64,000 nucleotides of DNA from a virus (IMGVR_UViG_3300049215_000527:21178-85177), one strand, 5' to 3'. Counted from the stretch's first letter, positions 12 through 25,592 are shown. The notes: a model not told the origin generated them from the sequence alone. A program made the numbers and translations.

Positions 12-3000
12 ATGGATGAGTTGGCCTTCACGGAGACCTCGAATCGTAGTGTAGGGGATAGCCAAGAGGCGGTGACGTATCGCAACGCCATCAAGCCCCG
101 CTCTGATTATCTGGCCCGCTATATCACCCGCATTGCCCATCGCTATGATGGCACGCCGCTGTTGTCCCATGCCCCGACCGTCTCCCGCCGTAATGCGCCA
201 ACCAAGAGCCGGGGCGAGTGGGATGCACGGTACAAATTGACCTGGGGGGGCATCGAGGAACCGGACGACTTCGCCACCAAGGCCCAAGCCGTGCAGGGCC
301 TCATGACCAGCGGCGTGCTGACACGATTGCAAGCCAAGCGCGTCCTGAAACTGCCCATTGACCAGGGTGAGCAGGACACGCCGCCCTTCACCGTCTTCAA
401 TGGTGGCATGAGTGCCGTCATTCCGCTGCAAGACATCGACGGCAGTCGCAAGGCCATTATGGCTCAACTCCAAGCGCAGTCGCAGTCGGCCCAAGTCGGC
501 GTGCAGACGGCACAGGCGGGCCTCAAGATCCAGCAGGACCAGGGCAAGATGCTGGACAACCAGGTGAGCCAGGCCGCCCAACAGCAGCAATCCCCCGATC
601 AGTCGGACCAGGGTGGCGACGAAGGTGAAGGCCAACCCCCACCCGATGACGGCAGCCAGGGGCCGGATAACGGCCCCACTGGCACGCCACCAACGCCACC
701 TGCTCCCAAAGGCAGCAAGGGCAAAGCCAGTGCCGCGCCATCGGCGGATACCTCTGGTGACGACGAAGGGGAGAACACCGACCAGGGTGATACGGGGGCA
801 GGCAATGATGCCGCCGCCGAAGCCGAGGTGGATGCGCTGATCGCCCAGGCCAAAGCGAAGGCAGCGGCTAAGGGCAAGAAGACGCAGCGGGCGCAGGCGG
901 TGGATGATGTCTATCTCCCCATGCCGCCGATTGCAGAAGATACCGCCTCAGAGTGGCGACGCTATCGTGAGTTTGCCCTCAATCGGGTGAAGCGCGGTCT
1001 TGCCATCACGCCCTTCACCAGCGATGTCCTGCCCACCCACCTACACACGTATGCCGCCGATGCGTTGCAACGCGCCACGACCCCCGATGCGGTGCGCGCC
1101 GTGTTCGCCGAGATTCGTGATGCGGAGACGCACCCCACGGATTGCCGCTGCATGGTGTGTGGGTGTGGTGAACCAGGGAACGATCACGGCATGCCCTACC
1201 CCGTCATCATTCCTGGCGATACGGAGAATGAGGGGTGCATGGTCGCGTTCTTCTTGCCCGCCTCGCTGTCACAGCAACTGGCGATTCCAGGTGGCATGCC
1301 TCAGCAAGACATGCACATCACTCTTGCCATGCTGGCGAAAGATATCACCGAGACACCAGTGAACAAGGCGCGTCTGTTGGCCGCTGTACAGCAATGGGCG
1401 ACGACGCAAACGCCGATCCAGGTCGATCTTGACCACCTGACGCGCTTCGATGGGGATACCGAGACCTATCCCGTGGTGGTACGCAGTTACACCCAAGCCT
1501 TGATGGATTTGCGGGCCGATTTGGTGGCGGCGCTAGACAATGCGGGCATTGCCATCGACACCACCTATCCCGATTACAAGCCGCATGCGACGCTGTGTTA
1601 TCTGCCGCAAGGTAGCCCGTTGCCTGCGGTACCTGAACCAAACGTGCATGGGAACTTGTCCCAGGTGTGGGTGGCGTATGGCGATGAACGCTACGCCTAT
1701 CCCTTGGGTGGCAACGACGACACCGCCAACATGGCAGAGACCCCCGTCAATGACGCGGTGGTGCAGGAACTGCGGGCCATGCGTACTGACGTGCTGGCGT
1801 TGCTGGGAAGCGAAGTCGTCCAGCCCCCTTTTCCTCTCGCCGTGCAACAGGCGGATGAGCAGCGTTGGGCGGAGCATGAGATTGTCCGTGGGGCGGGCGG
1901 CAAGATCATCGGCAACATCTATGATGGCGTCTTTCACCCCGTAAGTGGCATGCCTCATGCCGAGATCCGTGCTGCTCTGCCTCATGTCGATCCCACCTTC
2001 CACCGCGCCGTCGCCTCCTATCTCGGCAATCACCCGCAAAACATGGCAGAGCAGGCCAACTACTGGCAGGACAAACAACATCTCACGACACTCCTGCGTC
2101 AGGTTGATCCGCTAGAAAAGATGATCGACGCAGCTAAGCGTGAGGTTTCATTCCATACGTGGAATGCACAGGTCTCAGCACATGGTCAATCGCAACTTGA
2201 TGCTGCAAATAGGAATCTAGCAGAATTACTGAGTCTGCAAAAAGAGTTGGCGGAGGAAATCCACAACACACAAAGTCGCTTACAGGCTAGTCCGGTTGCG
2301 GCATCAATCCATCTTTTGCCGCCCACCGTCATCCATGAGCGTGCCGATACGCAACAGACCATCCAAGCCACCTTTGGGCGGGCGCTCTCTGATCAGGAAG
2401 TGGCGAGCCTCGTGGGGGCGCAGCACGGCGACCTCGTGACGGTCACGACCATTGGTGGTGGCTCGGCGCTGCAACTGCATCTTTATCAGCCGGATGGGTT
2501 ATACGAAGCGCAACGCACAGTGGAGCGTGACCCCACGACGGGGCAGATCGCCCTCGACAACAGCGCCTTTCAGGTGCGCGACACAGGGCAAGGCTTGGGG
2601 ACACGGGTGTTCATTGATCAGGTGCGTAGTGCCGCCGCTTTGGGTGTTGCCACCATCCTCACCGTCGGCGGCAAGGGTAACGTCACCACAGACCTGGGCG
2701 TCATGACCAACGCCAACGGCTATTACACCTGGCCGCGCTTGGGGTATACTGGATCATTGATGGCGGACTTCGCCGACAAAGCGTCCCAGGCATTGGGGTA
2801 TCGGGTGACCACCGTGATGGATTTGATGCAAACCCCAGAGGGCCGTGATTACTGGCGGGCCAACGGCTATCAGACCGACCTGTATTTTGATCTGCGACCC
2901 GATAGCCCGTCACGCCAGATCTTGGCTGCCTATGCCGCCGCCAAGGGCCTTGATACCACCGGAGTACAGCGCATGCAACAACCTGACGACCCACAAACGC

Positions 3001-3116
3001 CCCCATGGGTGGATCTCGATTGGACAGAGGCCGACGAAGCCGCCGCTGATGCGGCTTGGGCAAACGTCTTTCCCCCGAAAGATGCCTCTGCTGAAACCCC
3101 TGCCACCGAGGAATAA
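12..3116 (+). CDS. Portal protein C-terminal part fused to 2H phosphoesterase and GNAT domains (frame open to window edge, 5' partial)
   Basis: Portal-like C-terminus (LTWGGIEE...GVLTRLQAKRVLKLP) at the head of the morphogenesis arm; acidic linker; two HxT motifs (MHITL, PHATL); GNAT motif A (TGQGLGTRVF) and NGYYTWPRLGY. Confidence 0.7.
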   Translation: MDELAFTETSNRSVGDSQEAVTYRNAIKPRSDYLARYITRIAHRYDGTPLLSHAPTVSRRNAPTKSRGEWDARYKLTWGGIEEPDDFATKAQAVQGLMTSGVLTRLQAKRVLKLPIDQGEQDTPPFTVFNGGMSAVIPLQDIDGSRKAIMAQLQAQSQSAQVGVQTAQAGLKIQQDQGKMLDNQVSQAAQQQQSPDQSDQGGDEGEGQPPPDDGSQGPDNGPTGTPPTPPAPKGSKGKASAAPSADTSGDDEGENTDQGDTGAGNDAAAEAEVDALIAQAKAKAAAKGKKTQRAQAVDDVYLPMPPIAEDTASEWRRYREFALNRVKRGLAITPFTSDVLPTHLHTYAADALQRATTPDAVRAVFAEIRDAETHPTDCRCMVCGCGEPGNDHGMPYPVIIPGDTENEGCMVAFFLPASLSQQLAIPGGMPQQDMHITLAMLAKDITETPVNKARLLAAVQQWATTQTPIQVDLDHLTRFDGDTETYPVVVRSYTQALMDLRADLVAALDNAGIAIDTTYPDYKPHATLCYLPQGSPLPAVPEPNVHGNLSQVWVAYGDERYAYPLGGNDDTANMAETPVNDAVVQELRAMRTDVLALLGSEVVQPPFPLAVQQADEQRWAEHEIVRGAGGKIIGNIYDGVFHPVSGMPHAEIRAALPHVDPTFHRAVASYLGNHPQNMAEQANYWQDKQHLTTLLRQVDPLEKMIDAAKREVSFHTWNAQVSAHGQSQLDAANRNLAELLSLQKELAEEIHNTQSRLQASPVAASIHLLPPTVIHERADTQQTIQATFGRALSDQEVASLVGAQHGDLVTVTTIGGGSALQLHLYQPDGLYEAQRTVERDPTTGQIALDNSAFQVRDTGQGLGTRVFIDQVRSAAALGVATILTVGGKGNVTTDLGVMTNANGYYTWPRLGYTGSLMADFADKASQALGYRVTTVMDLMQTPEGRDYWRANGYQTDLYFDLRPDSPSRQILAAYAAAKGLDTTGVQRMQQPDDPQTPPWVDLDWTEADEAAADAAWANVFPPKDASAETPATEE

Positions 3117-3209: not shown

Positions 3210-5183
3210 ATGCTCTCGCTCTCTGCCCTCCAAGCCTATATCGCCCAGATTCAGTGTGACTGTGACCGCGTGTGGATCGCCGAGCAACTGCGGGCGCTGC
3301 ACGATGAGTCCGATGATCCCACCTATCGCATGCAGTTGGCGGAGTTGCAGCGGTTCGCCTGTGCCAATCCGATCTTTGGCTACCATCACTATTTCGCAGG
3401 CTGTGCTGATGGCGGTGGCAACAAGGCGGTGGTGCGATCTGATGTCAGTAAGATGGCAGGGATGCAGCATGAGGTGGATCTGCATGAACTAGAAAAGTCT
3501 GATAGATCCGACCGTGAGGCTCTCGATCAAAAAGCGGATCTCGAATCTAAGGCGCTGGCAGCGGCCCAAAAGATGACGCCTGAAGAGCGGCAGGTACTTT
3601 CCGATCATCTGGATCGTATTCAGTCCCAAGTACAGCGCCTGAACGCCGATCTTATCCATGCGTTTGAGAAAAACCCTGAAGCCGATATGAATGACCCCCA
3701 TATTCGCAGCGTTGCCGAGCAACTGCGTACACGGCAAGCGGAAGCGCACATGCTATCCACGCATCTGAGTCGTGCGCAGAATGAAGAGAACGCTCGGCAA
3801 GGGCGTATCGCTGCTTTCGCCAAGTCGATGGCAAAGGATCATGAAGCAGGGCTCAAAAACGTGCAGGAAGCGAAAGCAAGGGATGCCGCAGCCGCAAAGG
3901 CCAAAGCCGATGCCGTGCAAGCGAAAGCCGCGAAAACCGCCGCCCTCGCCCAAGCACGTGCAGAACGCGAGCAACGCCGCCTTGAAGAGATTCAGATGCG
4001 TGAGAATGTGCGTCGCGCGAAGGCGCAGATTGAGATTCGCTACGCCCGTGAGGCTGTGAAGGCTGCTCGCAGCAAACTGGATGATGCGGTGGCGAAACAG
4101 CGCCCCGCCAAATCCATTGCCTCCGCCAAAGAGAAGTTGCGCCAAGCGCGTTTGCAGGTACAGATCCTAAACGCCAAGGAAAAGAACCGTCAATCGGTGC
4201 AGATGAAACTTGACCTAGCCGAGGCGGCCAATAAGCCCACCCGCAAAGCATCGTCCAAACGGGCAATGGTAGCAGACCTCATCCAGCGTACCATGATGCA
4301 GGCCAATATCCTCCGGTTTGGCTGCACGCCAGAGAACGTGATTCGAGGGTATAACGGCCATTTCGCAGGATGTGCGGGTGGCGGTTCCACGGGTAAGGCA
4401 GTCCATTCCCAAGTCATTCACACCCGTGGTGGGATGAAAGCGGAGATCGATCTGCGGATGCACGAACGCGATGCAAAAGCCTTTGTTGCCAAGAATGGTG
4501 CTGCCCAGTACAAGGCGGTGCATGATGATCTCGTGCAACAAGCGAAGGCGGGGGCGGCGCAACTGACGGCAGCTGACAAGACCATCTTGCAAGCCGACCT
4601 CAAAAGCGTGTTAGCTAAGGCGGCGGCGATTGAGCGCAATGGGCAAAGTGCCACGTATTTACGGGATGAGGCGCTGATGTTGCAGCGGCAGTTACAGCGG
4701 GCAGGGGTGACAAAAAGCGCAGGCAAGGCGACGGGGAAACAAAACGTTCCCAGTGCTCCGAAACCCGCCCATAAAACCAGTAACATCCATCCATCCTTTA
4801 CAGTGCCAAAATATGATTTTGATCCGCTGGCCCCGATCAATCCTCGTGCAGTGCATCTCATGTATGGCACGGATAAGTTTCGCCAAGCACTTGTCGAGGA
4901 AACGTTGGCGGGACTGAAAACGGCAGCCAGATCCTGGGCGAATGCCCATCCGGCAGATGGACAGCCCGCATCGTACTCAAAGAAATCGGATCTCGTGGAC
5001 TATTTGTTTGATCGGGTCACCAAACATGATGGCACGATTGCATCATCTGCCGATGTTGCCGCTGCGGTGGCAAAAGAGCCAGTGGTGGATGCGCCGCTTC
5101 CTCCTACTTCTCGTGCCATCCAAGCCACCCTCGTCGCCACCCGTCTCGCGCATCTACGCACCCAACTCGACCGCGTGAAGTGA
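3210..5183 (+). CDS. Modular head-associated protein (two repeated N-terminal units, coiled coil, one SAP/HEH-like repeat)
   Basis: 657 aa ORF between portal and MuF; duplicated R-F-x-C...FAGCAxGG unit; C-terminal helical repeat shared with 8356-11487. Confidence 0.7.
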   Translation: MLSLSALQAYIAQIQCDCDRVWIAEQLRALHDESDDPTYRMQLAELQRFACANPIFGYHHYFAGCADGGGNKAVVRSDVSKMAGMQHEVDLHELEKSDRSDREALDQKADLESKALAAAQKMTPEERQVLSDHLDRIQSQVQRLNADLIHAFEKNPEADMNDPHIRSVAEQLRTRQAEAHMLSTHLSRAQNEENARQGRIAAFAKSMAKDHEAGLKNVQEAKARDAAAAKAKADAVQAKAAKTAALAQARAEREQRRLEEIQMRENVRRAKAQIEIRYAREAVKAARSKLDDAVAKQRPAKSIASAKEKLRQARLQVQILNAKEKNRQSVQMKLDLAEAANKPTRKASSKRAMVADLIQRTMMQANILRFGCTPENVIRGYNGHFAGCAGGGSTGKAVHSQVIHTRGGMKAEIDLRMHERDAKAFVAKNGAAQYKAVHDDLVQQAKAGAAQLTAADKTILQADLKSVLAKAAAIERNGQSATYLRDEALMLQRQLQRAGVTKSAGKATGKQNVPSAPKPAHKTSNIHPSFTVPKYDFDPLAPINPRAVHLMYGTDKFRQALVEETLAGLKTAARSWANAHPADGQPASYSKKSDLVDYLFDRVTKHDGTIASSADVAAAVAKEPVVDAPLPPTSRAIQATLVATRLAHLRTQLDRVK

Positions 5184-5186
5184 CCT

Positions 5187-6662
5187 ATGCCTGATCGTAC
5201 CGCCGCCCTCATCGCCGCTGATGCCCGTATCCGCGCCACCATCATGCGTCTGGAAACCCGTCGCATGCCCAAAGGGCCAGCAGGGTTGCGGCTCGTCACA
5301 CCACAGCGAGAGCGGGTGACGGGGCAGATCGTGCGCGAGGTCGCCTGGCCGCGCTATCTCGTGTGGCACAGCTACATCATGAGTCAGGTGCCGACCTCAG
5401 CCAGCGTCACGGTGATGGCACATCGGTTGCATGGCCACCTCTTGTATCGTGCCGCGTTGTGGTGCCAAGCCCACGGACTGCCCCTGCCCACGAAGGATCA
5501 CACGACGCCACCCGCATGGGCGATGCAGCCCTACCAAACGCTGTCCATCACCCGCGCTGTGGATGACGGCGGCGACCCCGAAGCCTACTGGGATGACTAT
5601 GGTGATTGGCCCGATGCGCTGGAAGGATTGACCCCGCAAGAGATTGCCGCCTGGGGATTGGAAAGCAGCCAACAGGCCAGTGACAGCGCGACCTTTGATG
5701 CCTGGATTGCCAATGAAGTCATGACCGACCTGGGCGTCCTGCAAGTATTGTCCCAAATCTGGAATGGCAGTGCGGCACAATTGGCGATGGGGGAATCGTT
5801 GGGGGCGATGGGCATCACGGGCAGCTTTGATTTGGTTGATCCCACGATGATGTCCTTCCTGCAAAACCAAGCAGGGTTGCTCGTGGGCGGGCAGGCGAAC
5901 CGCTTAGCCAGTGCCGAGCGCAACCTCTTGCAACAGGCGCTGTTCGAGGGGCTAGGCGGCGCTGATGGCGGCGTGGGGCTGGCGATGCCAGGACTTGCCC
6001 GCATGCTGCAAGACGCGATGGCGGCGTATGGCGGGGCGCTGGCCGATATGAGTAGCGCACGGGCGATGATGATTGCCGTGACGGAGACGGCGCGGGCCGA
6101 GACTATCGGCCAGTTTGCCTCGATGCTCGCCACCGGAGCGCAGCAAAAGCAGTGGATTGCCACCGCCGGGGCATGCCAAATCTGCGCTGAAAATGAATCC
6201 GTCAGTCCCATCGGCATTATGGAAGAGTTTCCTAGTGGTGGCCTTGCCCCGCCAATTCACCCTCTGTGCCGATGCTCAATCGCCGCCTACGTCGATCCGA
6301 CCGCACCCTTTGACCCCAAACAATGGGCCAATGCGCCAGGGCAAGATGCCATCAATAGCTTCTTTAGTGACCCCGCCTGGGCCTTGTGGCCCCAGATCCC
6401 TGATGGCGTCGATATGTCGGCGCTACGTGCCACCCAACCCACGCCCAACCTTGCGGCGGAGTGGGCACGGGGCAGCGCACTGGCGACGCGCATTGGCGCC
6501 GTCGCCCAGCGATTCGAGGGGCAGGGTGACACCCTGGATGAACTGGCACACCACCTCACCCCTGCCCAGATGCGCCACGCTGCGAGCGAGATCCGGCAAG
6601 TCATCGTGCAGGATATCAGTGACTTTCGGGCTAGGAGTAATTATCTATTCTCAAACGATTGA
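5187..6662 (+). CDS. MuF / SPP1 gp7-like head morphogenesis protein
   Basis: ARAMMIAVTETARA, KQWIATAGACQIC, PPIHPLCRC motifs. Confidence 0.9.
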   Translation: MPDRTAALIAADARIRATIMRLETRRMPKGPAGLRLVTPQRERVTGQIVREVAWPRYLVWHSYIMSQVPTSASVTVMAHRLHGHLLYRAALWCQAHGLPLPTKDHTTPPAWAMQPYQTLSITRAVDDGGDPEAYWDDYGDWPDALEGLTPQEIAAWGLESSQQASDSATFDAWIANEVMTDLGVLQVLSQIWNGSAAQLAMGESLGAMGITGSFDLVDPTMMSFLQNQAGLLVGGQANRLASAERNLLQQALFEGLGGADGGVGLAMPGLARMLQDAMAAYGGALADMSSARAMMIAVTETARAETIGQFASMLATGAQQKQWIATAGACQICAENESVSPIGIMEEFPSGGLAPPIHPLCRCSIAAYVDPTAPFDPKQWANAPGQDAINSFFSDPAWALWPQIPDGVDMSALRATQPTPNLAAEWARGSALATRIGAVAQRFEGQGDTLDELAHHLTPAQMRHAASEIRQVIVQDISDFRARSNYLFSND

Positions 6663-6707
6663 GTTTTACACTATGATTGAAGTATCAAGAAGCAATGAGG
6701 TACTTCA

Positions 6708-6938
6708 ATGCCAGATGAAAAGCAACCCCAACTGCCCCCTCCCACAGGCTGGATGAGTGCCAAGGGAGCAGGGGAATTTTTAGGGCTAAGCCCTATTACA
6801 GTCCGTAACCTTGTTCGTAACAAGGTGCTTGACCCTGGCTACATTGGTACGAACCTTTATGTCAGTGAGGTAAGTGTTCGGCGCTACGCGAAAGAACGGA
6901 AACCCTCTCATCGCCCTAAGAGCAAAAGTATTAAGTAA
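6708..6938 (+). CDS. Excisionase/MerR-like HTH DNA-binding protein
   Basis: WMSAKGAGEFLGLSPITVRNLV...LYVSEVSVRRY pattern. Confidence 0.8.
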   Translation: MPDEKQPQLPPPTGWMSAKGAGEFLGLSPITVRNLVRNKVLDPGYIGTNLYVSEVSVRRYAKERKPSHRPKSKSIK

Positions 6939-6980
6939 AACTAGAGCGATTGTGTTCCACGTGGAACAGTGGGAGGGAAT

Positions 6981-8104: not shown

Positions 8105-8134
8105 CGCGGACTTTTATCCTGTCAACCCACACTG

Positions 8135-8350: not shown

Positions 8351-8355
8351 CGCTG

Positions 8356-11300
8356 ATGGTTGCGCGCCCGACGCTAACTGAACTACGGGCGCGCCTCACC
8401 CGCATGCAAGAGGCCGTCGTTGCCCGTGACTATCATCCCGATCAACCTCGCACAGCAGATGGGCGGTTTGGCTCGACAGGTGGCAAACCTGTCGACCTCT
8501 TGCTCAATCCAGGCGACGACATGGGCAAGTACGCCAAGATCATTGCCAAGGCGGCAGGCAACGAAGAGATCGTTGGTCAGTGCTCCCATTGCTCGCGCAT
8601 GCTTTCTGGCCCGCTAGCAGGTAAACGCATCGGAGTTATCGTGCGCAAAAACGCCTGGACCACTGGCCTCAAGACGGGCTTCTCGCATGGGGTATGTCGG
8701 TCATGTCAGAAGGACTGGCTCATCGATGTCTATACCAAGAAAGGGTTGACACCTGAGCAGGCCACGGCACGGGCGACGCTCTTTCAGGCGGGCAAACCCA
8801 TCCCTGATGACCTGCGTACCGAGGCGGAAAAGGCCCAGCGTGCCATGACCCCCGATGAAGCATACGCCCTACTGCGTCAGGCCCAGGCGGCACGGTTACA
8901 GTTGGTGCGCACTCGCCTGGCGCTGCACATCCTGCGTGTGCGAATGGCCGATGAGACCCGCTATGAGGGTGGGTTGAATGGGCGCATCCCCTTGTTCGCA
9001 ATGGGTGCCGATGGTAAGATGCACTTCGCAGGCAGTACACCAGGGGCGGGCAAGGCCCCAATTCCGACATCGCCGGGCCATCTGCACATCCCTGGCGTGA
9101 CCCATGTCGCGCATACCGATGGCAAGGGCGGGGGGGTGAAAGCGAGTGGCAAGCATGGTGCAAAGACCCCATCCGTCGCCGATCTGCACCATGCGTCCCG
9201 CGCATGGCAAGCAGCGAACCCGCACACCCCAGAGACGCCACCTACGCCCGTCGATCAACTGGTGCTTGTCCAGCCCGTCGATATGCGGGAAATTGACCCG
9301 TATACCCATCCCGATGCCCACCGACTCGCCAGCATCTTCGGCGAGCATCAGGTGGGGGCGGCCATCAGCAACTTCACCGTTAGCACCTTGCAGCAGATGG
9401 CAAAATCCCTGGGCATCTCCACCACGGGCATGCGCAGCAACCATGATGCGTTGGTCTCGGTCATCACAGCGCATGTAACAAATGGCCACTACAGCGCCGA
9501 TTTCGGCACGCAGACGGCGACGGGCAAGACGGCGGGGACGAAAGCCCAAAGCGAAGAGGCGGGAAGGTTCCCAGCCGCACGGATAGAAGAATTGAAGAAC
9601 CGCGCCCTATATGGCGATAAAACGGCGCAAGAAGAGGTCATGAATCTCCTGCGCGATCATTTTCACGATCCTGAGTCCAAAAGTGTTGCCACGGACAGCG
9701 AAAAGGCGGCCCGTGCCGCCGATCTCATGCTGCAATATCGGGGTCGCTATGAGAGGGAGCAGTCCGGCTACCTTACGGATAACGGTAGACCGCTTTCCCG
9801 TGCGGCTGATCCCGCATTGTTCTGGCACGCGGCTGGTGGCGACCCGGAACTCATGGAACTCATGTTGAAGTCTGGCGTGGGAGGCATGATGCCGCATTAT
9901 CTGCGTCAGCATCCCGATATGCTAGGCATGGAACGATTTAACAATGGCCAGGTGAATCGCGACCCATCACCAAAGGAAATTGTGCAGGCGCTGCAACTGC
10001 AACATGACGGTAAAGTGACTTGGCGCGTTGGTTCGGATGGCGGCGCACCCCCCAACCCTGCTGATCCCCGTGCCGCCAACTACCTCGCCGACATGGCCCG
10101 CCTACGCGAGACCCATGCGGCGTATCTGGCTGATACCCCTGCCGTGGCCAAAGCACATGATGCGGCGACAAAAGCCGCACGTGGGGGGACGAAGGCAAAA
10201 GAGCCGACAGCCAACCAACAACTACGCATCAATCAGCACCAAGTCGTCGATCGACTGGTTCCTATTCAGACTGGGCTTCGGTTTAACGCCTTCAATCTGT
10301 TAGATGATGCGAGCCTCACGAGCGCCCATCGAACCTTTGGCTCTGATCAACTCAAAGACGCCATTTATGCGAATCCCACAGCAGACCTTCGCGCGAAAGC
10401 GCAAGAGATGGGTATTTATCGAGCAGGGATGACGCATGAAGATTTGGCCCGTACAATTGCTGCCGCCTGGATTGCCAAAGAGGGCCACATTGACGGCCCG
10501 CCCTCTCATTTGGATGAGATATTGGCTCAGACGAGCAAACCCGACGCCTATACGGGTGCGGATCTGGTGCCGATCTCGTCGGCGGTGGGTTACAACATCA
10601 ATGTGTATGGCCCGCCACAAGAGGATATCCTGCTCAAGATCTATGGCGCGGAACAACTGCCCAAGGCGCTCTCGCTGTTTAGTACACCCAAACTCAAAGA
10701 GGCGGTGGACAGGGCGATGACGAAGTATCCTGGCACCAAGCCCGCCAGCCGCACCAAACGCGAGGATCTCATTGCATATCTCGTACAGCAAGCGGTACAT
10801 CCGGGCGAACCGATGCCAGGTGCCAGTGCGGGTAAGGATCTTACTGGCCTCAAACCTTCTGGGGCGGCGACACTCGCCATTTTGGGGTCACAGTTACTTC
10901 AGTTGAAAGATCCTGGAGATCCAATCGAAGCGTGGCATCATTTTGGTGGCACGGCGGAGTCACTGCGTGCGGTCTTATATGAAGAACCCATTGGGTATTT
11001 ACGCGGTATGCTGATGCATCCCAATATGCCTCCTGGGCCATCCCCCCGTGGCAAATCGCGGCAAGTGTTGGCCGACAACATCGTCAAACGCCTCGATGCG
11101 CACTTCAATCCGCAGCCGCCCACCAGTGCGGGCAAGGGTCTTAGTGGCCTCAAACCCTCGGGGGTTGCGGCATCACCAGCCGACCCCTATCACACAATGA
11201 GTCCTCATGATCTGTTGCATGCGGTAGGCGAGGCTCAATTCCATGAGGCATTATCCCGTATGTCCACGGCAACCCTGCGGGAGATGGCAAAAACCTATGC

Positions 11301-11487
11301 CATCCCCACGGGCCGCGCCAAACGCGATATGGTGGATGCTATTGAGCAGTGGACGAAGGCGCATCCCGAAATGGCAGGCGTCTATCCCACAAAGGGTAGT
11401 ACCGCCATCAAGGATAGCGCGACACGCATGACCCTGCCCGATCTCGCCGCCAAACTCGCTCACCTGCGCGCCGCCGCCCGCATGTAA
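8356..11487 (+). CDS. Polyvalent head-associated protein with five SAP/HEH-like helical repeats and an N-terminal Cys/His Zn-binding element
   Basis: YHPDQPRTADGRFG motif; CSHC...HGVCRSC; five repeats of DP..x..G..QL..AL.....L...A...G......L; SAGKxLxGLKPSG duplicated. Confidence 0.75.
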   Translation: MVARPTLTELRARLTRMQEAVVARDYHPDQPRTADGRFGSTGGKPVDLLLNPGDDMGKYAKIIAKAAGNEEIVGQCSHCSRMLSGPLAGKRIGVIVRKNAWTTGLKTGFSHGVCRSCQKDWLIDVYTKKGLTPEQATARATLFQAGKPIPDDLRTEAEKAQRAMTPDEAYALLRQAQAARLQLVRTRLALHILRVRMADETRYEGGLNGRIPLFAMGADGKMHFAGSTPGAGKAPIPTSPGHLHIPGVTHVAHTDGKGGGVKASGKHGAKTPSVADLHHASRAWQAANPHTPETPPTPVDQLVLVQPVDMREIDPYTHPDAHRLASIFGEHQVGAAISNFTVSTLQQMAKSLGISTTGMRSNHDALVSVITAHVTNGHYSADFGTQTATGKTAGTKAQSEEAGRFPAARIEELKNRALYGDKTAQEEVMNLLRDHFHDPESKSVATDSEKAARAADLMLQYRGRYEREQSGYLTDNGRPLSRAADPALFWHAAGGDPELMELMLKSGVGGMMPHYLRQHPDMLGMERFNNGQVNRDPSPKEIVQALQLQHDGKVTWRVGSDGGAPPNPADPRAANYLADMARLRETHAAYLADTPAVAKAHDAATKAARGGTKAKEPTANQQLRINQHQVVDRLVPIQTGLRFNAFNLLDDASLTSAHRTFGSDQLKDAIYANPTADLRAKAQEMGIYRAGMTHEDLARTIAAAWIAKEGHIDGPPSHLDEILAQTSKPDAYTGADLVPISSAVGYNINVYGPPQEDILLKIYGAEQLPKALSLFSTPKLKEAVDRAMTKYPGTKPASRTKREDLIAYLVQQAVHPGEPMPGASAGKDLTGLKPSGAATLAILGSQLLQLKDPGDPIEAWHHFGGTAESLRAVLYEEPIGYLRGMLMHPNMPPGPSPRGKSRQVLADNIVKRLDAHFNPQPPTSAGKGLSGLKPSGVAASPADPYHTMSPHDLLHAVGEAQFHEALSRMSTATLREMAKTYAIPTGRAKRDMVDAIEQWTKAHPEMAGVYPTKGSTAIKDSATRMTLPDLAAKLAHLRAAARM

Positions 11488-11541: not shown

Positions 11542-11571
11542 CTGTTGCCCGCCAACAGGAGGACCGCCCGC

Positions 11572-14346
11572 ATGGCTGTGAAATATGCCAAAACCCAACG
11601 CGCCAAGAAGTTCCAATCCCCTGGCCACTACACGACCAAGGACCGCACCACCATCGATGCCGCCGATTTTGGCGACCCAGCGCACAAACTCTTCCCCATC
11701 GTTGTGGCGGCGGACGTGGCCGATGCGGCCCGCCTCATTGGCAAGGCCGCCGACCCCGACGCCGTGAAAGCACGGATCATCAAAATCGCCAAGAAAAAAG
11801 GTTTCCCGTTGCCCGCAAGTTGGGAAGAGGAGAGCGGCGCCCGCGCCCTTCTGCCCACCGAAACCCGCGCCGATGCCGCCAGCGTCACCACCCTCCCCTT
11901 TGCCCGTGTCACGCGCATTGATGAGCAGAACCGCCTCGTCACGCTACGGGCAACGTCGGAGGCAACGGACTCCTTCCGCACTGCCTTTGCCTATGAAGCC
12001 AGCAAAGATGCGTTTTCGCGGTGGGAGCAGGCCGCAGGCAACATTCGCGAGATGCACGCCCCCAAGGCGGTGGGCCGGGCGGTGCAGGTGGAGTACGACG
12101 ATGCGTCGCGCGCCATCGACGTGACCCTGCGGATCTCGAAAGGGGCCCAAGACACCTGGGAAAAGATTGTGGATGGCACGTTGCAAGGCGGCAGCATCGG
12201 CGCCTCGAATGTGGTCTGGCAAGTGAATCAGCAACGGGTTGCCAATGCCCCCGAAAAGATTGCCACGAAATACGACCTCGTGGAGCTCTCGCTCGTGGAC
12301 AATCCGAGCAACCCCGATTGCCGCGTCCTTGCCGTGCGTGCCGCTGGTGCCACCGATATTCTCGAAGCCCTGGACGACGCCCCCGCCCCCGCCGCGCACC
12401 CCAAAGGCATGGCCAACCCCGCGAATCTTCCCCCCACGATTGCCGCCGCCATGGCCGCCGCCTATGGCGACGCGCCCGACGAAACCCTATCATCGGCGCC
12501 ACGCGCCGCCACACCACAGGAGGCCCCTATGGGCATGAACGCCAAGAACCGGGCGCGAGAGGCGGCGCAACGTGCGGCGCAGGAACGCGCGCTGAAGATC
12601 CGTGCCGCCGGAGACGCGGCGGTGAAAGCCGCAAACCTTACCCAATACGCCCCAGGACGCGGCAGCTTTGATGTCTTTACCCAACAGGTCGCCGCCGTAC
12701 GCGGCACTGCCGAGGCCGAGGCGGCACGGGCCTTGCCGCCCGTCATGGGGCGCTTCGCCGCCCCCGACACCGCGCCTGCCGCCCCGACCGAGACGCGCTT
12801 CGACGACCCTGCTGGCATCATCCCCGCACCAGACACGGCGGCCAATCCCGCCAGCATGCCCGAAACACCGCTCGCGGTGTCGTTGGACGATCAGTCCTCG
12901 GCCAGTCACCCCTTGCCCCATGTCCATGCCCATGCCCACACCCATAGCGATGGCATGACGCATGCCCACCCGCACAGCCACAGCCACGAGGAACACGTCA
13001 TGCGGGCCGACATGCCGGACAACGCGCCGCATGCGGAGCACGCCCATGTCTATCGCGGCGGCGTGGCGTATGACGCCACCCTCTTGCAGCAGCCCGAACT
13101 GTTGCGCGGCACGCCGTGGCAAATCAACCCCATCGCCGCCGCCACCGCCGAGGCGGGTAACGTCCACGGCACGCAGTTGGTCGCCGCCAAGATGGCCAAA
13201 ACGGGCACGGCCATGATGCAGCCGCAAGGCGTGGGCCACCCGGTCATGTATAACAGTGAAGACGCCAACATGCTGGGCTTTGCCGTGCCCGTCGCCGCCG
13301 ATCCGGTGCAGGCCACCCCCACCGACAACGTGACGCTGGACCCCGCCATGTTCCACTCTGGCGGCCATAGGCCGCGTGTGGATAACGTCCATGTCAAGGA
13401 ACCCATGGCCGATCAGGATGGCGACCATGACGCGGCAGAGGACGAGACGGAGCGGACCGAAGGGGACAAGATCGTGGGCGGCGGGTTGCCTGCCTTCACC
13501 GTGCCCAATCGGGATGTGGAGGCGACGCCCCGCATGGCGGCAGCAGATGACGGTGGGTTGCCCGCCTTTGCCGATCTCGTCGAGGAACTGCGCACGGCCC
13601 TGGCCGAGCACCTCAACCTCGAACTGCGCTATGGCGCCCGGCTGTCCGGGGATAGCATGGACGCCGTGCATGGCATTCGCGATAGTGCCCTGGCCACGGC
13701 GCAGATGGCGACGGCGCACTGCGGCTGCGACGAGTGCCAGGCCCACCAACCTGTGATTCTGGCCCTCATGAACGGCGAACCGCCCGATATGGGGGACGAG
13801 GACGATGAGGACGAGGACGAGGACACGGGGGCAGGCGACGATGACGGCATGCGCCTGCAATTAGCCGAAACACAGCGGCAAACGGCGGAGGCACTGAACA
13901 TGGTCTTTGGCCAAGTGCAAACGCTGGCCACACGCCTCGCGACGCTGGAAACCCAAACGCCATACCTCGCCGCGCAGTTGAGCGATCTCACGCTGACCCT
14001 CGCTGATCAGCAGCGCATGCAATCCGCCACCGTGACCCGTGCGCAATCGGCGCAAGACGCCCAGACCCAGGCCCTGCAAACAGCCATTATCCAGCGAATG
14101 GAAGCGTTGGCTGCGGACGCCGCAGCGACGAAAGCACTCGTGGAGCAAGTGGCGGCGCAACCTGTGGCGGGCAATGCCCCGCTCGCCCCCTGGGCCGTGC
14201 CAGTGGACAAACGGATGGGCGGCTACTATGGCAACGCCCAACCCGAAAGCACGCCAGAACAAATCCGGGCCTGGATCGCCCAGCGCCCAATGGAAGACCA
14301 AATCGACCTTGCCGCCCAACTCGTGCGGCCCGCAACCCGCAAATAA
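11572..14346 (+). CDS. Prohead protease (HK97-like) fused to an N-terminal DUF6582-like domain and a C-terminal scaffold
   Basis: NIREMH...AVG, WEKIVDGTLQGGSIG, LVELSLVDNPSNPDC; AGGAGG RBS; His-rich, acidic and coiled-coil tail. Confidence 0.88.
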   Translation: MAVKYAKTQRAKKFQSPGHYTTKDRTTIDAADFGDPAHKLFPIVVAADVADAARLIGKAADPDAVKARIIKIAKKKGFPLPASWEEESGARALLPTETRADAASVTTLPFARVTRIDEQNRLVTLRATSEATDSFRTAFAYEASKDAFSRWEQAAGNIREMHAPKAVGRAVQVEYDDASRAIDVTLRISKGAQDTWEKIVDGTLQGGSIGASNVVWQVNQQRVANAPEKIATKYDLVELSLVDNPSNPDCRVLAVRAAGATDILEALDDAPAPAAHPKGMANPANLPPTIAAAMAAAYGDAPDETLSSAPRAATPQEAPMGMNAKNRAREAAQRAAQERALKIRAAGDAAVKAANLTQYAPGRGSFDVFTQQVAAVRGTAEAEAARALPPVMGRFAAPDTAPAAPTETRFDDPAGIIPAPDTAANPASMPETPLAVSLDDQSSASHPLPHVHAHAHTHSDGMTHAHPHSHSHEEHVMRADMPDNAPHAEHAHVYRGGVAYDATLLQQPELLRGTPWQINPIAAATAEAGNVHGTQLVAAKMAKTGTAMMQPQGVGHPVMYNSEDANMLGFAVPVAADPVQATPTDNVTLDPAMFHSGGHRPRVDNVHVKEPMADQDGDHDAAEDETERTEGDKIVGGGLPAFTVPNRDVEATPRMAAADDGGLPAFADLVEELRTALAEHLNLELRYGARLSGDSMDAVHGIRDSALATAQMATAHCGCDECQAHQPVILALMNGEPPDMGDEDDEDEDEDTGAGDDDGMRLQLAETQRQTAEALNMVFGQVQTLATRLATLETQTPYLAAQLSDLTLTLADQQRMQSATVTRAQSAQDAQTQALQTAIIQRMEALAADAAATKALVEQVAAQPVAGNAPLAPWAVPVDKRMGGYYGNAQPESTPEQIRAWIAQRPMEDQIDLAAQLVRPATRK

Positions 14347-14397: not shown

Positions 14398-15906
14398 GTG
14401 CAAATTTCCGAAGAGACGATCCGCCTCGTTGAGGAAGCGATCGCCACCCGTCAGATGATGCCCAATGTCACCCGTGGCATCACGATCAGTTCTAATGACA
14501 TTGGCTATGACCTTGAAGCCCCCGCCAAAGTCATCGTCCCAGTGCAGACGCCGCTCGTCAACATGCTGCCCCGCAAACCAGGGCCTGGCATCAACATCAC
14601 CAACTGGAAGGCCATCACCGCCTTCGACACCTCGCGCAGTTGGGGTACCCTATCCGGCAACAACGTCCCCACTGCCGTCACGTACAGCTTCGTCTCCCTC
14701 TCCAACAACTACCATACCATCGCCCTGTCGAACTCCGTAGACTTCGAGGCGCAGTGGTATGGGCGCAGTTTTGAAGGCGATGTCCGGGCGCGGCGCTTGG
14801 CCGAACTGCTGTACCAGGTCAAGATCACCGAAGAGCGGTGGCTCTTGCAAGCCTCAGCCAAGTTGATGGTGCCCCCGGCCCCGGTGCTCTCCACCACGAC
14901 CAGTGGCGGCGCGGCGCTGGACAGCACGACGTACTATGTCACGGTGACGGCAGTTAACGCCAACGGCGAAACGACGCAGAGCAGCGCCACCAGCATCACC
15001 ACAGGCAACTCTGGCTCCAATGTCAATACCCTCAAGGTCACGCTCTTCACGGTCCCGAATGCGACGTACTACAACGTCTATATTGGCACCAACAGTGCGG
15101 CGGCCCGCACCACGCAGTGGCTGCAATCCTCCATCTCCGGCAACAGCAACGCTCCGCAGCCCTCCGTCAACGTGGCCGTCTCGCTGAACGGCGGCGGCTC
15201 GACGGCCTGTGGCGAAGTCCAGGCCCCTACCGTTGGCCCCTTGTCCCTCACGGCGTCGGTTGCCTCCTCTGGCACGAACCCGCCCTCCACCAACGGCGCG
15301 AACACCTTCCAGGACTCGAACTCCAACACGACGATGTGGGATGGCCTCATCTCCCAAGGCCTCTTGAACGCGGGCACGGGCAATGGCTTGACGCTGGGGA
15401 CGCAGGTGGCACAACCCGCCGCCACCAATGGTGTGCTGGCCCTGTCCGACATCGACAACCTGTTGGTCTCAGCCTACAACCAGGCTGCCGCCGACCCCGA
15501 TGTCTTGATCATGAACAGCATCGTCCATCGCAAGCTCACCAACCTCGTGGCGCAGGCCAACCAGACGCGCTACGTCGTGGATTCGACGCAGGGTCAGGCC
15601 CAGGGCAACCTCACGGCGCAATACCGCGTCACGCATTACCTCAACGAAGCGACGGGCAAAGAGATCCCGATTGTCGTGGACCGCTACTGCCCCGCCGACA
15701 CCATCGTGGCGCTGCCGATGTCCATCCCCTATCCGGTGCCCGAAATCAGCAACGCCGTGGAGATCGAAGTGAACCAGGAATACTGGGGCATCGACTTCGC
15801 CATCACGAACAGTTCCTTCCAATTCGCGGATTACGTGAACGAGACCTTGAAGGTCTACTTCCTGGGCGGCTTGTGCGTTCTGCGCGGCATTACTCCCGCT
15901 GTCTAA
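14398..15906 (+). CDS. Major capsid protein with an inserted FN3/Ig-like domain
   Basis: Follows the protease; YDLEAPAKVIVPVQTPLVNMLPR start; insert PPAPVLSTT...TYYVTVTAVNANGET...ATYYNVYIG. Confidence 0.85.
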   Translation: MQISEETIRLVEEAIATRQMMPNVTRGITISSNDIGYDLEAPAKVIVPVQTPLVNMLPRKPGPGINITNWKAITAFDTSRSWGTLSGNNVPTAVTYSFVSLSNNYHTIALSNSVDFEAQWYGRSFEGDVRARRLAELLYQVKITEERWLLQASAKLMVPPAPVLSTTTSGGAALDSTTYYVTVTAVNANGETTQSSATSITTGNSGSNVNTLKVTLFTVPNATYYNVYIGTNSAAARTTQWLQSSISGNSNAPQPSVNVAVSLNGGGSTACGEVQAPTVGPLSLTASVASSGTNPPSTNGANTFQDSNSNTTMWDGLISQGLLNAGTGNGLTLGTQVAQPAATNGVLALSDIDNLLVSAYNQAAADPDVLIMNSIVHRKLTNLVAQANQTRYVVDSTQGQAQGNLTAQYRVTHYLNEATGKEIPIVVDRYCPADTIVALPMSIPYPVPEISNAVEIEVNQEYWGIDFAITNSSFQFADYVNETLKVYFLGGLCVLRGITPAV

Positions 15907-22841: not shown

Positions 22842-22870
22842 ATTATATACATTGCTGCAATGTATGTCAA
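22842..22870 (-). promoter_or_regulatory. Consensus sigma-70 promoter whose spacer is a palindromic operator
   Basis: Minus strand TTGACA-tacattgcagcaatgta(17)-TATAAT. Confidence 0.92.
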
Positions 22871-22944
22871 GCCCTTGGTACCCCAGTTTCACCAAGGTGA
22901 AGATTTCTTCACCTAACCCACCCACAGAAAGAGAGCACCATCCC

Positions 22945-23556: not shown

Positions 23557-23827
23557 GCCACTCTCCCGCGAGTTTCAGTTAGATGATGCGGAGATCGAGG
23601 CTGATCTGGATCTGTTCGTGAAGGAAGCCATCCTCGACTATCGGGTCTGCGAGAAGCGCGGCTACGCCTTCCTGCATGACCACCCGCCGACCGCAGCGTA
23701 TGTGTGGCGCACCGAAGCCATTCTGGCGGCGGAGGCAGCGGCCACGGCGCACATCGAGAACAAGCACGCCCAACGGCTCAAGGCCGAGTCTGATGCGCTC
23801 AAAAGCCAGATGCACACCCGCCGCTAA
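23531..23827 (+). CDS. Second tail assembly chaperone (putative, T-like)
   Basis: Overlaps the previous ORF in the +1 frame. Confidence 0.5.
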   Translation: MVQAIFTSEPLSREFQLDDAEIEADLDLFVKEAILDYRVCEKRGYAFLHDHPPTAAYVWRTEAILAAEAAATAHIENKHAQRLKAESDALKSQMHTRR

Positions 23828-23840
23828 AGGATACCTCGCC

Positions 23841-25592
23841 ATGACCGATCTTGCCACCCTACGCACCCGTCTCATGGCCATTCGTGCCGCCCTGCCAGAC
23901 TCGCCAGAGGTGGCGCTCTTGCGGGCGTACCTGCCCACGGCACCGGACCCCGCACGGGTGGCGCTGGCCATCGCGTATCTGCAAGAGGCGGCGGTGACAC
24001 GGTACGAGGGGCAAGAGATTGTGCGCGGCCCCAACGGGCGCATCGTGGGCAATATCGGTGTAGGTTTGGGTGCGGAGCGATCTGCACATGTCCTCATGAA
24101 TCGTTACGGCGACCATGTGGCAAAAGGGAAAGATCCGGAAACGTTTACCCACAAAGGACTACACGGCACAAAGGACGTTGATGCCCATTTGCAAGAACTC
24201 GGTCATAAGGCCGATGCCCATGCGGCGGCGTACACCTCACAGCAAGTGGATAAGTTGATGGCACTCCATGCCCAGGCGGAAGAGGCACTGATGCGTGGCC
24301 TGGCACTGGGGTTTGCGACCAAAGCTGAGGCTGCCAAGGCGGCACGGGAGCAAGATGTCCTCAAAGCACACCTGCACCGTGTGGCAAGCCGATCCCCCGC
24401 CCAACGCGACCGCATCAATCAGTATCTCAACGGTCGCCGCGCGGCACGGGATCAGATTGCGCGAGACATCGACCGTGCCAAGTTGCAACAGATGGCGGCG
24501 AAACTGCGCGAACACCAGCAAGCCGCAGTCGAGGTGACGCGCTACGCGGGACAGGTAGCGATTCATGGCGCAGGTGGCCGTATCATCACCAATGTGAGCG
24601 CAGGTGGTGGCAAAACACCAACGGGCGGCGGGGCGAAATCTGCCAGAGTCCCCTCGGCCAGCAAGCCCCCCAAGGCCAGTGGCGCGAAGGCGGGTAAGGC
24701 CACCAGCGCCAAAGCGTCCTCACAGGAAGTCAAACAGATCCCCATCGCCGCCATCCACACGGGCCTCAACCCGCGCGAGTTCTTCGACCCCGCCAAGATC
24801 GCCGAACTGGCACAGAGCATCAAAGGGCATGGCCTGTTGCAACCCATCAGTGTGCGGCCCCACGAGGGCGGGTATCAAGTCATTGCGGGTGAGCGGCGCC
24901 TGCGCGCGCTGCAAGCCTTGGGCATGACGCATGCCCCCGTCATTGTCCATCAGGTGGATGATCAGACGGCGCATGAGTTGGCGTTGATTGAGAACATTAA
25001 CCGCGAGGATATGCGGCCCGGCGAGACAGCCCGCGCCTATCAGAACTTGCTCAATAGCGGCATGACGATCAAGGCCCTGGCCGAACGCACGGGCAAATCC
25101 ACCGATGCCATCCAGGCCCACCTCGACCTCTTGACGCTGCCCATCCACCTGCAAGCGTTGGTGGATAAGGGCAAGCTGTCAATGGGGGTCATCCGTGGCT
25201 TGGCCCGCCTCAGTCCTAAAGGGCAGGAGGCGGCGGCAGAGCGCATCTTGCGCGATGACCTGGGCGTGAAGAGCGCCAATCGCCTCATCAAGACCATCAG
25301 CGAACGCGAATCCCAGACCAGTCTCTTTAGCGAGGTGCAGCCCGTGAGTCAAGCCGCCCATGACGCCCAAGCCGCATACCAAGACACCATGACCCGCCTC
25401 ACCGAGATGCTGTCTGGCATGGATGACGCCCACGTAACGTTGGCCGCCCAAGCGACTGACACCCCGTTACGGGAATCCGAGCGGTTGGGGCTGATGATCA
25501 AGCAACTGCAACGCATGCAGGGGGCAATGGAGACGGAGCATTACCGCCGCGCCGAACGCTCGGCACGGGCCACGCTGGTGCGGATCAGATGA
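23841..25592 (+). CDS. ParB/Spo0J-domain protein with an N-terminal cargo-type extension
   Basis: LNPREFFD...LAQSIKGHGLLQPISVR...IAGERRLRAL...ALIENINREDM plus HTH; two TR|Y..G linkers upstream. Confidence 0.9.
   Translation: MTDLATLRTRLMAIRAALPDSPEVALLRAYLPTAPDPARVALAIAYLQEAAVTRYEGQEIVRGPNGRIVGNIGVGLGAERSAHVLMNRYGDHVAKGKDPETFTHKGLHGTKDVDAHLQELGHKADAHAAAYTSQQVDKLMALHAQAEEALMRGLALGFATKAEAAKAAREQDVLKAHLHRVASRSPAQRDRINQYLNGRRAARDQIARDIDRAKLQQMAAKLREHQQAAVEVTRYAGQVAIHGAGGRIITNVSAGGGKTPTGGGAKSARVPSASKPPKASGAKAGKATSAKASSQEVKQIPIAAIHTGLNPREFFDPAKIAELAQSIKGHGLLQPISVRPHEGGYQVIAGERRLRALQALGMTHAPVIVHQVDDQTAHELALIENINREDMRPGETARAYQNLLNSGMTIKALAERTGKSTDAIQAHLDLLTLPIHLQALVDKGKLSMGVIRGLARLSPKGQEAAAERILRDDLGVKSANRLIKTISERESQTSLFSEVQPVSQAAHDAQAAYQDTMTRLTEMLSGMDDAHVTLAAQATDTPLRESERLGLMIKQLQRMQGAMETEHYRRAERSARATLVRIR

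Follow-up and report, generated by a model that had tools for sequence, protein, structure and literature searches.

Seven linkers in phage head-associated genes as a putative diverged form of a widespread cargo tag

Four genes in a 64,000-nucleotide stretch of viral DNA (hereafter the window, part of an 85-kb genome) carry seven related linkers that may well be a lineage-specific, strongly diverged local form of a peptide tag which is very widespread among phages and apparently undescribed in the literature and databases we searched. In each unit an amphipathic helix leads to an aromatic residue and a short beta-hairpin (h-h-R-G-x-x-G-[KRH]-[IF]), after which comes a flexible Gly-rich tail; the unit borders an effector module on the module's N-terminal side. 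On the sequence and structure-prediction evidence below, the best reading of the tag is that of a modular address or retention tag for head cargo, to which we assign a probability of about one in two. On this view, a conserved part of the assembling head would bind the hairpin as its docking epitope, the candidate partners being the scaffold/protease core, MuF or the portal, and the inner capsid surface. Modules would in this way be brought into the procapsid and retained there, to leave later along with the DNA. The features on which this reading draws are listed in Table 1.

Table 1. Tag units, cargo genes, and neighboring head genes, in window coordinates unless stated otherwise
Feature	Position	Strand	Remarks
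Portal fusion gene, 3' part	1..3116	+	full ORF 1413 aa, start 1125 nt before window
Portal tag unit	1824..1943 (core 1857-1919)	+	helix, then R-W-A-E-H-E-I-V-R-G-A-G-G-K-I-I-G-N-I hairpin
g3210	3210..5183	+	stand-alone, cargo-type; two tag units, coiled-coil-like segments
g3210 tag unit 1	3312..3431 (core 3345-3404)	+	most degenerate copy; flanked by Cys pair
g3210 tag unit 2	4275..4394 (core 4308-4373)	+	V-I-R-G-Y-N-G-H-F-A-G-C; weak link to canonical tag
g3210 C-terminal Leu/Arg helix (LAHLR)	5130..5180	+	
MuF-like minor head protein	5187..6662	+	phrog_115, Phage_Mu_F
g8356	8356..11487	+	N-terminal helix and tag, CxxC...CxxC, second tag, SAP/Rho_N-like repeats
g8356 N-terminal Leu/Arg helix and tag unit 1	8371..8505 (core 8419-8472)	+	Q-P-R-T-A-D-G-R-F-G-S-T-G-G-K
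g8356 tag unit 2	8920..9039 (core 8953-9036)	+	split, degenerate
g8356 C-terminal Leu/Arg helix (LAHLR)	11443..11484	+	
Prohead protease (S78-like) and long scaffold-like region	11545..14346	+	tagless; E-L-R-Y-G-A-R-L-S-G-D island 13618-13653
Major capsid protein, SU10-type	14398..15906	+	N-terminal helix, then N-V-T-R-G at 14461-14481
g23676, ParB-type cargo	23841..25592	+	ParB_N and HTH_ParB; among tail genes; likely true start 23841
g23676 N-terminal Leu/Arg helix	23841..23894	+	
g23676 tag unit 1	23961..24080 (core 23994-24056)	+	
g23676 tag unit 2	24501..24620 (core 24534-24596)	+	directly before Gly/Ala/Lys-rich spacer and ParB domain
Eighth tag copy	genome 16150-16836		outside window, upstream of terminase genes; canonical W-D-E-x-x-HPRG-x-x-GKF
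G001 ortholog of g3210	34087-35754 (in G001)		carries R-V-I-R-G-Y-H-G-R-F-V-G-C (compare g3210 tag unit 2)
G001 ortholog of g8356	38191-40074 (in G001)		

A reading of the genome placed all seven linkers (7/7) in frame where the sequence-only reading had located them. A strict motif regex applied to six frames matched these genes only, plus one out-of-frame match, and the HMM of the seven copies that had been proposed as a check, when run against the whole 85-kb genome, retrieved a sole additional match, the eighth and canonical copy. When copies were left out of the HMM one at a time, the portal copy and the two g23676 copies recovered one another with E of about 1e-6, and the g3210 pair was not recovered. 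With hhalign, the diverged window copies aligned to the canonical tag profile in the same register (P about 2e-6), as did the g8356-type copies to the canonical family profile (P 2.6e-6, same register); the g3210-type copies gave a marginal result against the canonical and other copies (P 0.024, register correct). The earlier claim that one motif is common to all four genes thus stands for the portal, g23676, and g8356 copies, with the g3210 pair as its weak link. The two g3210 tags do form a clear pair, and the ortholog of g3210 in a related phage, G001, has the same form.

Compared residue by residue with the canonical tag, the window copies keep some of its features and have lost another. 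The aromatic at position -5, counted back from the H-P-R triplet, is W in the portal copy, together with E at -3, and Y in the g23676 copies; the G-[KR]-[FW] element, three residues past the Arg, appears as G-K-I, G-R-I, G-H-F, or G-R-F, followed by Gly-rich tails; and the tags are placed N-terminally or between globular modules of head-associated proteins. The canonical H-P-R, in contrast, is replaced in all seven by I-V-R, A-I-H, V-I-R, P-I-F, or Q-P-R and is found only in the out-of-window copy, and an HMM of the canonical tag detected none of the seven. Because the triplet is missing, we name them a diverged variant and not canonical members. We also considered the motif as a zinc finger and as a P-loop and rejected both, as there is no ligand set and no Walker pattern.

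The canonical tag itself, [WF]-[DN]-[EP]-x-x-H-P-R-[GD]-x-x-G-[KR]-[FW] plus a Gly/Ser-rich tail, with E, D, A, K, or S at position -6, is present in at least 120 viral contigs, nearly always within long ORFs. At positions left unconstrained by the search pattern, these viral matches have W/F at -5 in 83% and E/P at -3 in 87%. A scan of a bacterial genome collection for the HPRGxxGRF codon pattern, which is uninformative on host range, gave 121 matches, nearly all of them out-of-frame noise from GC-rich DNA, and 5 of the 121 had an aromatic at -5; the contrast shows that the viral matches are not due to chance. A profile search identified 1,420 representative proteins with the tag at E<=1e-3 and up to 17 copies per protein, the highest number occurring in giant multi-ART proteins. 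The carriers are portal, MuF, ART, NUDIX, 2H, GNAT, Zeta-toxin, and prohead-protease fusions, and the tag recurs only in such head-associated, cargo-type proteins. It is N-terminal or interdomain, with 43% of tags falling in the first 80 residues, and in portal and MuF fusions it comes after the anchor domain. These counts contradict the idea that the signal is peculiar to this phage; they agree with the accompanying claim that the motif, and not gene position, marks the modules, as the tag heads effector modules of head-associated proteins at any gene position.

Searches for an earlier description or a named carrier of the tag were negative. No Pfam family describes it, no solved chain contains it, and no description was found by full-text searches with motif strings or in the main texts of PMC5512222, PMC9503650, PMC5576092, and PMC12226406. 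Searching by tblastn with a 40-residue tag window gave no match, and searching with whole tag-bearing proteins gave matches confined to MuF or NUDIX/ART domains, so that these supply no named cultured tag carrier.

The portal fusion shows the arrangement most fully, its order being portal domain, acidic/Ala-rich spacer, 2H phosphoesterase, tag unit, and C-terminal module. In the full ORF, Pfam assigns Phage_portal to residues 186-409 and 2_5_RNA_ligase2 to residues 806-916, in agreement with the proposal of a 2H effector. A GNAT domain, which had also been proposed, has no match in Pfam or the PDB and is left with a weak language-model lead. The AF2 prediction for the portal unit consists of a helix at 3-14 and strands at 19-22, 28-33, and 36-39 (pLDDT 77; the AF2 models are of 40-residue fragments and of moderate confidence), and so, for this unit, bears out the claim that each linker is preceded by an amphipathic Leu/Arg helix. 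In G001, a relative that shares synteny and about 35% protein identity, the tags are kept at orthologous places. Against G001, no other 28-aa window of the 1,413-residue protein is as well conserved as the portal tag, at 86% versus 35% overall. By this comparison the portal tag is conserved far above its surroundings and is under strong purifying selection, and its conservation points to a function at the peptide level.

This conservation also bears on whether the unit is a passive joint, that is, a conserved interdomain spacer or a recombination seam for module shuffling between phages with no signalling role, in the manner of the demarcation motifs of polymorphic toxins. Modules are indeed shuffled between cargo genes, with the SAP-like repeats of g8356 matching the G001 ortholog of g3210; the tag module of g3210 is duplicated; and highly variable domains follow the tag, all as a joint would have it. 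Nevertheless, a mere joint would not be expected to stand out within the portal protein, and the nucleotide identity among window tags is only 56-62%, with third-codon-position identity at background. With so little identity the tags are not recombination substrates here, and the absence of any excess at the DNA level indicates that selection acts on the peptide. We consider a passive joint quite improbable. Gene conversion among the tag copies was rejected on the same nucleotide comparison.

The ParB effector that had been predicted is present, with ParB_N and HTH_ParB found in g23676 (a database gene call of 583 aa) behind two tags, and the predicted DNA-binding repeats are likewise found in g8356 as SAP/Rho_N-like repeats. 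Together with the portal and 2H domains in one ORF, all within a structural operon, these place the genes among those encoding polyvalent proteins. A Pfam search returned no domain for g3210, and the MuF-like protein has no tag by HMM. The LAHLR helix that was said to end two cargo genes does end both g3210 and g8356, and terminal Leu/Arg helices occur in the cargo proteins only, in both the window phage and G001, as judged by a regex written after the sequences had been seen. Such a terminal helix may add affinity to the docking of stand-alone cargo in this lineage. In G001, the place of g8356 tag unit 2 is taken by a near-canonical G-H-P-L-R-D-G-R-G-R-W. Further relatives were not retrieved: a search for related loci with the capsid protein found none, tblastn of g3210 against cultured phages gave no match, and the N-terminal region of g23676 matched only itself among 5.8 billion proteins.

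The sequence-only reading had further proposed that the prohead protease cuts after Arg, and had pointed out bare xTR/xLR sites in the head proteins. Taken as the chief function of the unit, such cleavage would make the tag polyprotein punctuation: the prohead protease or another protease would cut at or beside each tag, here after the Arg preceding the aromatic, and so separate each module from its portal or MuF anchor, its leader helix, and the other modules. The tags do lie exactly at module borders and behind the anchor domain in portal and MuF fusions, and their multiple internal copies (up to 17 per protein) suit punctuation at least as well as docking. In this lineage, the last residue of the helix is Arg in 10 of 11 units; of the bare sites, V-T-R at the capsid N-terminus and R-Y-G in the scaffold island (E-x-R-Y-G-x-R-[LI]-S-G-D) are kept in G001, the former at the same place. 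T4 offers a precedent in a targeting propeptide that is cut off by the prohead protease (PMC9026906). However, the bare TR sites as a class are at chance level, with observed and expected counts nearly equal in every protein (6 versus 6.5 in the portal, 4 versus 4.5 in g8356), and Arg before the aromatic is a feature of this lineage only, absent from the canonical tag. A conserved hairpin of 15 residues also does not resemble the known sites of prohead proteases, where the motif spans 3 residues, as in L/I-x-E.

Moreover, a prohead protease is detectable in 4 of the 13 complete tag-bearing phages, and none of six prohead-protease families was found in the other 9, in a search of limited sensitivity. 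For the S77 family, searches of the tag-bearing genomes gave no match, and the control genomes were likewise without one. Since 9 of the 13 genomes have no detectable prohead protease, a protease site is unlikely as the general function of the tag, and the presence of a protease in only 4 favors docking over cleavage as the general role. We therefore regard punctuation as the chief purpose of the unit as rather unlikely and a cut after Arg as the general role of the tag as unlikely, while proteolytic release is possible in this phage, where, speculatively and not family-wide, the S78-like protease may free modules by cutting at the conserved Arg that separates the helix from the hairpin. MuF was rejected as an obligate partner on similar grounds, having been detected in only 9 of the 13 complete tag-bearing genomes.

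The hairpin might instead serve during or after ejection: by binding to DNA, to the tail channel, or to some conserved factor of the host, it would pilot modules out of the head or aid their action or refolding in the cell, with no part in loading. Its invariant R, K/R, and W/F residues, basic or aromatic, and the flexible tails would be well suited to contacts with nucleic acid or a channel. The tag is also found alongside widely differing portal families, whether or not MuF or a protease is present, which implies that its partner is nearly universal. On the other hand, acidic residues, as found at -4 and -3, are atypical of DNA binding, a search of known binding motifs and structures returned no match, and the strongly N-terminal, leader-like placement resembles that of loading signals. 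We judge such an ejection role unlikely and continue to prefer the head-cargo address.

Among known systems, the targeting tail at the C-terminus of the HK97 gp4 protease is reportedly a short terminal segment that steers a protein into the procapsid interior, and the Dar system of phage P1 is said to use short terminal segments in the same way. Both are single, terminal signals of one phage, neither widespread nor repeated, unlike the tag. The demarcation motifs of polymorphic toxins (CdiA VENN, Rhs DPxGL) are likewise short motifs bordering highly variable effector domains, but their sequences are unlike the tag, and the one in Rhs is where the protein cleaves itself within a folded shell. 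MuF polymorphic toxins are a subset of the tag carriers, and the paper describing them does not mention the tag (PMC5576092).

The polyvalent proteins are multi-domain effectors encoded among head genes and often fused to the portal or MuF (Iyer, Burroughs, Anand, de Souza, Aravind 2017, PMC5512222; PMC9503650), with 2H, ParB, DNA-binding repeats, ART, NUDIX, and GNAT as effectors and with packaging and injection predicted (PMC5512222). The portal-2H fusion of the window, which comes from an uncultured phage (an IMG/VR record), and its neighbors fit this description. The main texts of the two papers contain no such tag and no common leader or linker, and no peptidase for the metallopeptidase autoprocessing that they propose was found here. 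A closer mechanistic parallel is the CTS of T4 IPI-III and Alt, a short reusable N-terminal peptide that brings unrelated proteins into the prohead core, is cut off by the prohead protease, and is portable to foreign proteins (PMC9026906), i.e., the very mechanism of the sequence-only reading. The CTS, however, measures about 10 residues, occurs in T4-like phages alone and only at the N-terminus, and is processed at L/I-x-E by the S77 protease gp21. The tag has no sequence similarity to it and is also internal, repeated, and found in phages without a detectable protease; in the window phage the units sit both at the N-terminus and internally, have no L/I-x-E logic, and accompany an S78-like protease.

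A more tentative and less probable extension of the head-cargo reading is that the tag, canonical and diverged forms together, is a near-universal portable label of tailed phages that docks any module at a conserved site in the head interior, such that 20-40 residues would be enough for capsid loading and delivery to bacteria. If so, the window would show drift to the loss of H-P-R with the aromatic and hairpin geometry kept, and would suggest that this lineage has added to the label a further signal, the terminal Leu/Arg helix, together with a protease step. T4 and a few single cases are the only ones for which the selection, loading, and release of injected enzymes by phages are understood in detail. 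A tag on effector modules in thousands of phage proteins would, if the reading is true, provide a general, testable answer to how cargo is loaded; tag searches would reveal injected anti-defence effectors in unannotated phage genomes, and the tag could offer a handle for putting chosen proteins into phage particles in laboratory strains. The window phage and G001 form a natural related pair with canonical and diverged copies side by side, and the residues that survive the extreme divergence in the window are the aromatic, R-G, G-[KR]-[IF], and the Gly-rich tail.

The linker shared by the portal fusion and the cargo-type genes g3210, g8356 and g23676 (ParB-type) belongs, as a diverged form, to a very widespread tag found ahead of the effector modules of head-built or head-loaded phage proteins. 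The region belongs to a tailed phage's head module, and the window itself spans bases 21178-85177 of an 85,269-bp IMG/VR viral record. All seven peptides picked out by the sequence-only reading are in place and in frame, and its observation of a shared linker holds to a larger extent than it supposed; the aligned copies have more in common than it listed. Each begins with a helical stretch of roughly 10 residues (h-Q-x-A-x-h-x-R), followed by an aromatic residue, 4 or 5 further positions, the segment h-h-R-G-x-x-G-[KRH]-[IF]-x-G-[NCS] and lastly a tail rich in Gly.

Across all six frames, a strict regular expression for the linker core matched the linker genes only, plus one site out of frame, and an HMM of the seven copies run on the whole genome found a single additional match, an eighth copy. 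Relatedness among the seven is uneven: in a leave-out HMM test the portal and g23676 copies recovered each other (E about 1e-6), and those of g3210 and g8356 were not recovered. When a core HMM was built from the strongest copies alone, the best non-training matches were the eighth copy, unit 2 of g8356 and the positional analogue of g23676 in a relative, G001, each weak alone (E 0.17-1.5). The window's strongest copies share 56-62% nucleotide identity in pairwise comparison with third-position identity at background, so the linker is conserved at the peptide level and does not owe its conservation to gene conversion.

The eighth copy, upstream of the terminase genes, reads W-D-E-N-Q-H-P-R-G-A-N-G-K-F-I-G-G-D-G, which is fully canonical, and it provided the lead to the widespread tag family. 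A codon pattern for H-P-R-G-x-x-G-K-F retrieved at least 120 stretches from a viral contig collection; nearly all of those listed are in frame in long ORFs (up to 2172 aa), and among these listed matches positions left free by the pattern are conserved, with W/F at -5 in 83%, E/P at -3 in 87%, D/G at +5, followed by K/G and a run rich in Gly and Ser. A control scan of bacterial genomes with the Arg-codon pattern yielded almost only junk frames, with an aromatic residue at -5 in 5 of 121 matches. In a search of 1.84 billion proteins, a profile built from 90 tag windows matched 1,420 representative ones (E<=1e-3). The majority are multi-copy, with as many as 17 matched stretches in one 7334-aa protein and 16 in one 5313-aa protein, where each ADP-ribosyltransferase domain is preceded at a distance of 30-45 residues by a W-D-E-x-K-H-P-R-G-E-H-G-[KR]-[WF] unit. 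The proteins that carry the tag are classic polyvalent proteins associated with heads, whose domains include ADP-ribosyltransferases, three portal families, NUDIX, MuF, 2H, GNAT, PBECR1, Zeta toxin, topoisomerase IB, Acb1 and prohead proteases, and the tag sits near the N-terminus or between recognised domains (43% within the first 80 residues; median relative position 0.17 of ORF length). MuF, detected in 9 of 13 complete genomes with canonical tags, is enriched in tag-bearing genomes and is not an obligate partner. No Pfam family covers the canonical tag or the linker, no chain among solved structures contains the tag, a full-text motif search turned up no mention of it, and papers on polyvalent proteins, NAD-ADPr and MuF toxins are likewise silent on it in their main texts.

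The canonical HMM detects none of the seven window copies, which are therefore a diverged variant without the H-P-R triplet. Two hydrophobic residues replace H-P, and the two forms share identical spacing, the aromatic residue at -5 and the following R-G-x-x-G-[KR]-[IF]. A window-type profile from which canonical copies were excluded aligned to the canonical profile in the same register (P 2e-6, probability 89%); the g8356-type profile alone gave P 2.6e-6, and the g3210-type profile reached no better than P 0.024, with the register unchanged.

G001 is a complete 102-kb viral genome syntenic across the head module, with identities of 34% for the portal, 44% for MuF, 35-40% for the capsid and 50-60% for tail genes. 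It retains the canonical copy upstream of the terminase, in an ortholog of the ORF with the eighth copy at the same place (39% identity), and its portal copy is almost identical to the window's; this tag is the most conserved 28-residue stretch of the portal fusion (86% versus 35% overall, 99.6th percentile). A single g3210-type copy is present, flanked by a Cys pair as in g3210, and the two g8356 tag positions read A-A-D-G-K-F-A-S-G-S-G-K and the near-canonical G-H-P-L-R-D-G-R-G-R-W. The place of the ParB gene is taken by an unrelated protein of 553 aa, which still opens with a helix and E-V-T-T-G-A-G-G-K-W-I-A-N. The Cys pair (C ... G-C) that flanks the g3210 hairpins and that of the G001 ortholog, absent from every other tag copy, may staple the hairpin through a disulfide or a metal.

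Since the AlphaFold2 models are of 40-residue fragments, secondary structure alone was used from them. For the window-type alignment the predicted elements are a helix (residues 3-14) and then a hairpin meander of three strands, with a mean pLDDT of 77, and 88 over the R-G-x-G-G-K turn, and the canonical alignment gave a tight bridged loop between Arg and Phe (mean pLDDT 70). Stand-alone cargo proteins of both phages carry, in their first 20 residues, an amphipathic Leu/Arg helix that follows the pattern L-[AT]-x-L-R-x-R-L, and several canonical-tag ORFs of other phages have an N-terminal helix ahead of the tag. The LAHLR helix proposed to be shared at C-termini was recovered, with a similar helix ending g3210, g8356 and the G001 analogue. 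A terminal-helix regular expression matches these termini and no other protein, and its 4 observed versus 0.16 expected matches are only indicative because it was composed after the sequences were seen.

Most likely, at a probability of about 0.5, the tag is a docking or retention epitope for procapsid loading, through which tag-bearing proteins would meet a binding partner and be packaged. The sequence-only reading had the prohead protease cut after Arg. An Arg does stand at the helix end in 10 of the 11 units of this lineage, and similar-looking islands are conserved in both phages (E-x-R-Y-G-x-R-[LI]-S-G-D in the scaffold and V-T-R at the capsid N-terminus), which makes cleavage after that Arg a fair local hypothesis. 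As the function of the tag, proteolytic punctuation is nevertheless doubtful: the corresponding position of the canonical tag is not basic, known prohead proteases cut at 3-residue sites (PMC9026906), which a conserved 15-residue hairpin does not resemble, and only 4 of 13 complete canonical-tag genomes gave a match to one or more of six prohead-protease Pfam families (S78, S78_2, Mu-like, ClpP, S49 and S77), by a search of limited sensitivity that scored the window's own protease at E 6e-6 and that of G001 at 1.7e-4 and had no S77 match anywhere, control genomes included. Also against cleavage, TR dipeptides stand at no more than the expected frequency in any head protein. A role during or after ejection is unlikely, and a passive seam is more improbable still. 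The analysis thus establishes how the tag is built, how it is conserved and distributed, and that it goes with head proteins, while packaging, a binding partner, cleavage and ejection are inferred.

Features of the head module and its surroundings (window positions unless marked)
Feature	Position	Length	Description
ORF with eighth tag copy	genome 16150-16836, 5.0-4.3 kb before window start	228 aa	just upstream of terminase genes; N-terminal Leu/Arg helix, canonical tag, about 130 residues without family match
Terminase genes	just upstream of window		first in head-module order
Portal fusion	first 375 residues before window	1413 aa	Phage_portal, 2H phosphoesterase, C-terminal module
Portal C-terminal module	2200-3116
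Q-x-x-G-x-G-like signature	2580-2612		in portal C-terminal module
g3210	follows portal fusion	657 aa	no Pfam domain
g3210 hairpins	3351-3404, 4320-4373
MuF-like protein	follows g3210	491 aa
Stretch from MuF to g8356	6663-8355	1.7 kb	G+C 0.53 versus about 0.60; small ORFs only
g8356	follows MuF-like protein	1043 aa	SAP/Rho_N-like repeats
g8356 Cys/His segment	8580-8730	residues about 75-125	C-x-H-C ... C-x-x-C
Protease/scaffold fusion	follows g8356		S78-like protease fused to long scaffold-like region
Scaffold His-rich run and C-G-C-x-x-C-Q	12931-12996, 13717-13740
Capsid protein	follows protease/scaffold fusion		SU10-type
g23676	12 kb further along, amid tail genes		ParB-type protein
Opening of long g23676 ORF	23676-23840	55 codons	Arg/Pro-rich junk-like peptide

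Neither Pfam (E<=1) nor a PDB sequence search bore out the GNAT domain proposed for the portal C-terminal module; language-model matches of the module to GNAT clusters are weak (0.90 and 0.80). Translation of g23676 probably starts at 23841, as the 583-aa length of the database gene call indicates, and the placement of the leader helix gives the same start. Directly behind the first tag of g8356, the Cys/His segment, conserved in G001 and without a Pfam match, looks like a small zinc ribbon. The scaffold's His-rich run (H-x-H repeats around S-D-G) and C-G-C-x-x-C-Q, both kept in G001 although overall identity is just 27%, may bind metal. The G001 MuF gene (L126:13690-15903) is longer than the window's, at 738 aa, because of an insertion matching Intein_splicing (E 1.5e-5, below the Pfam cut-off), which the window's MuF lacks.
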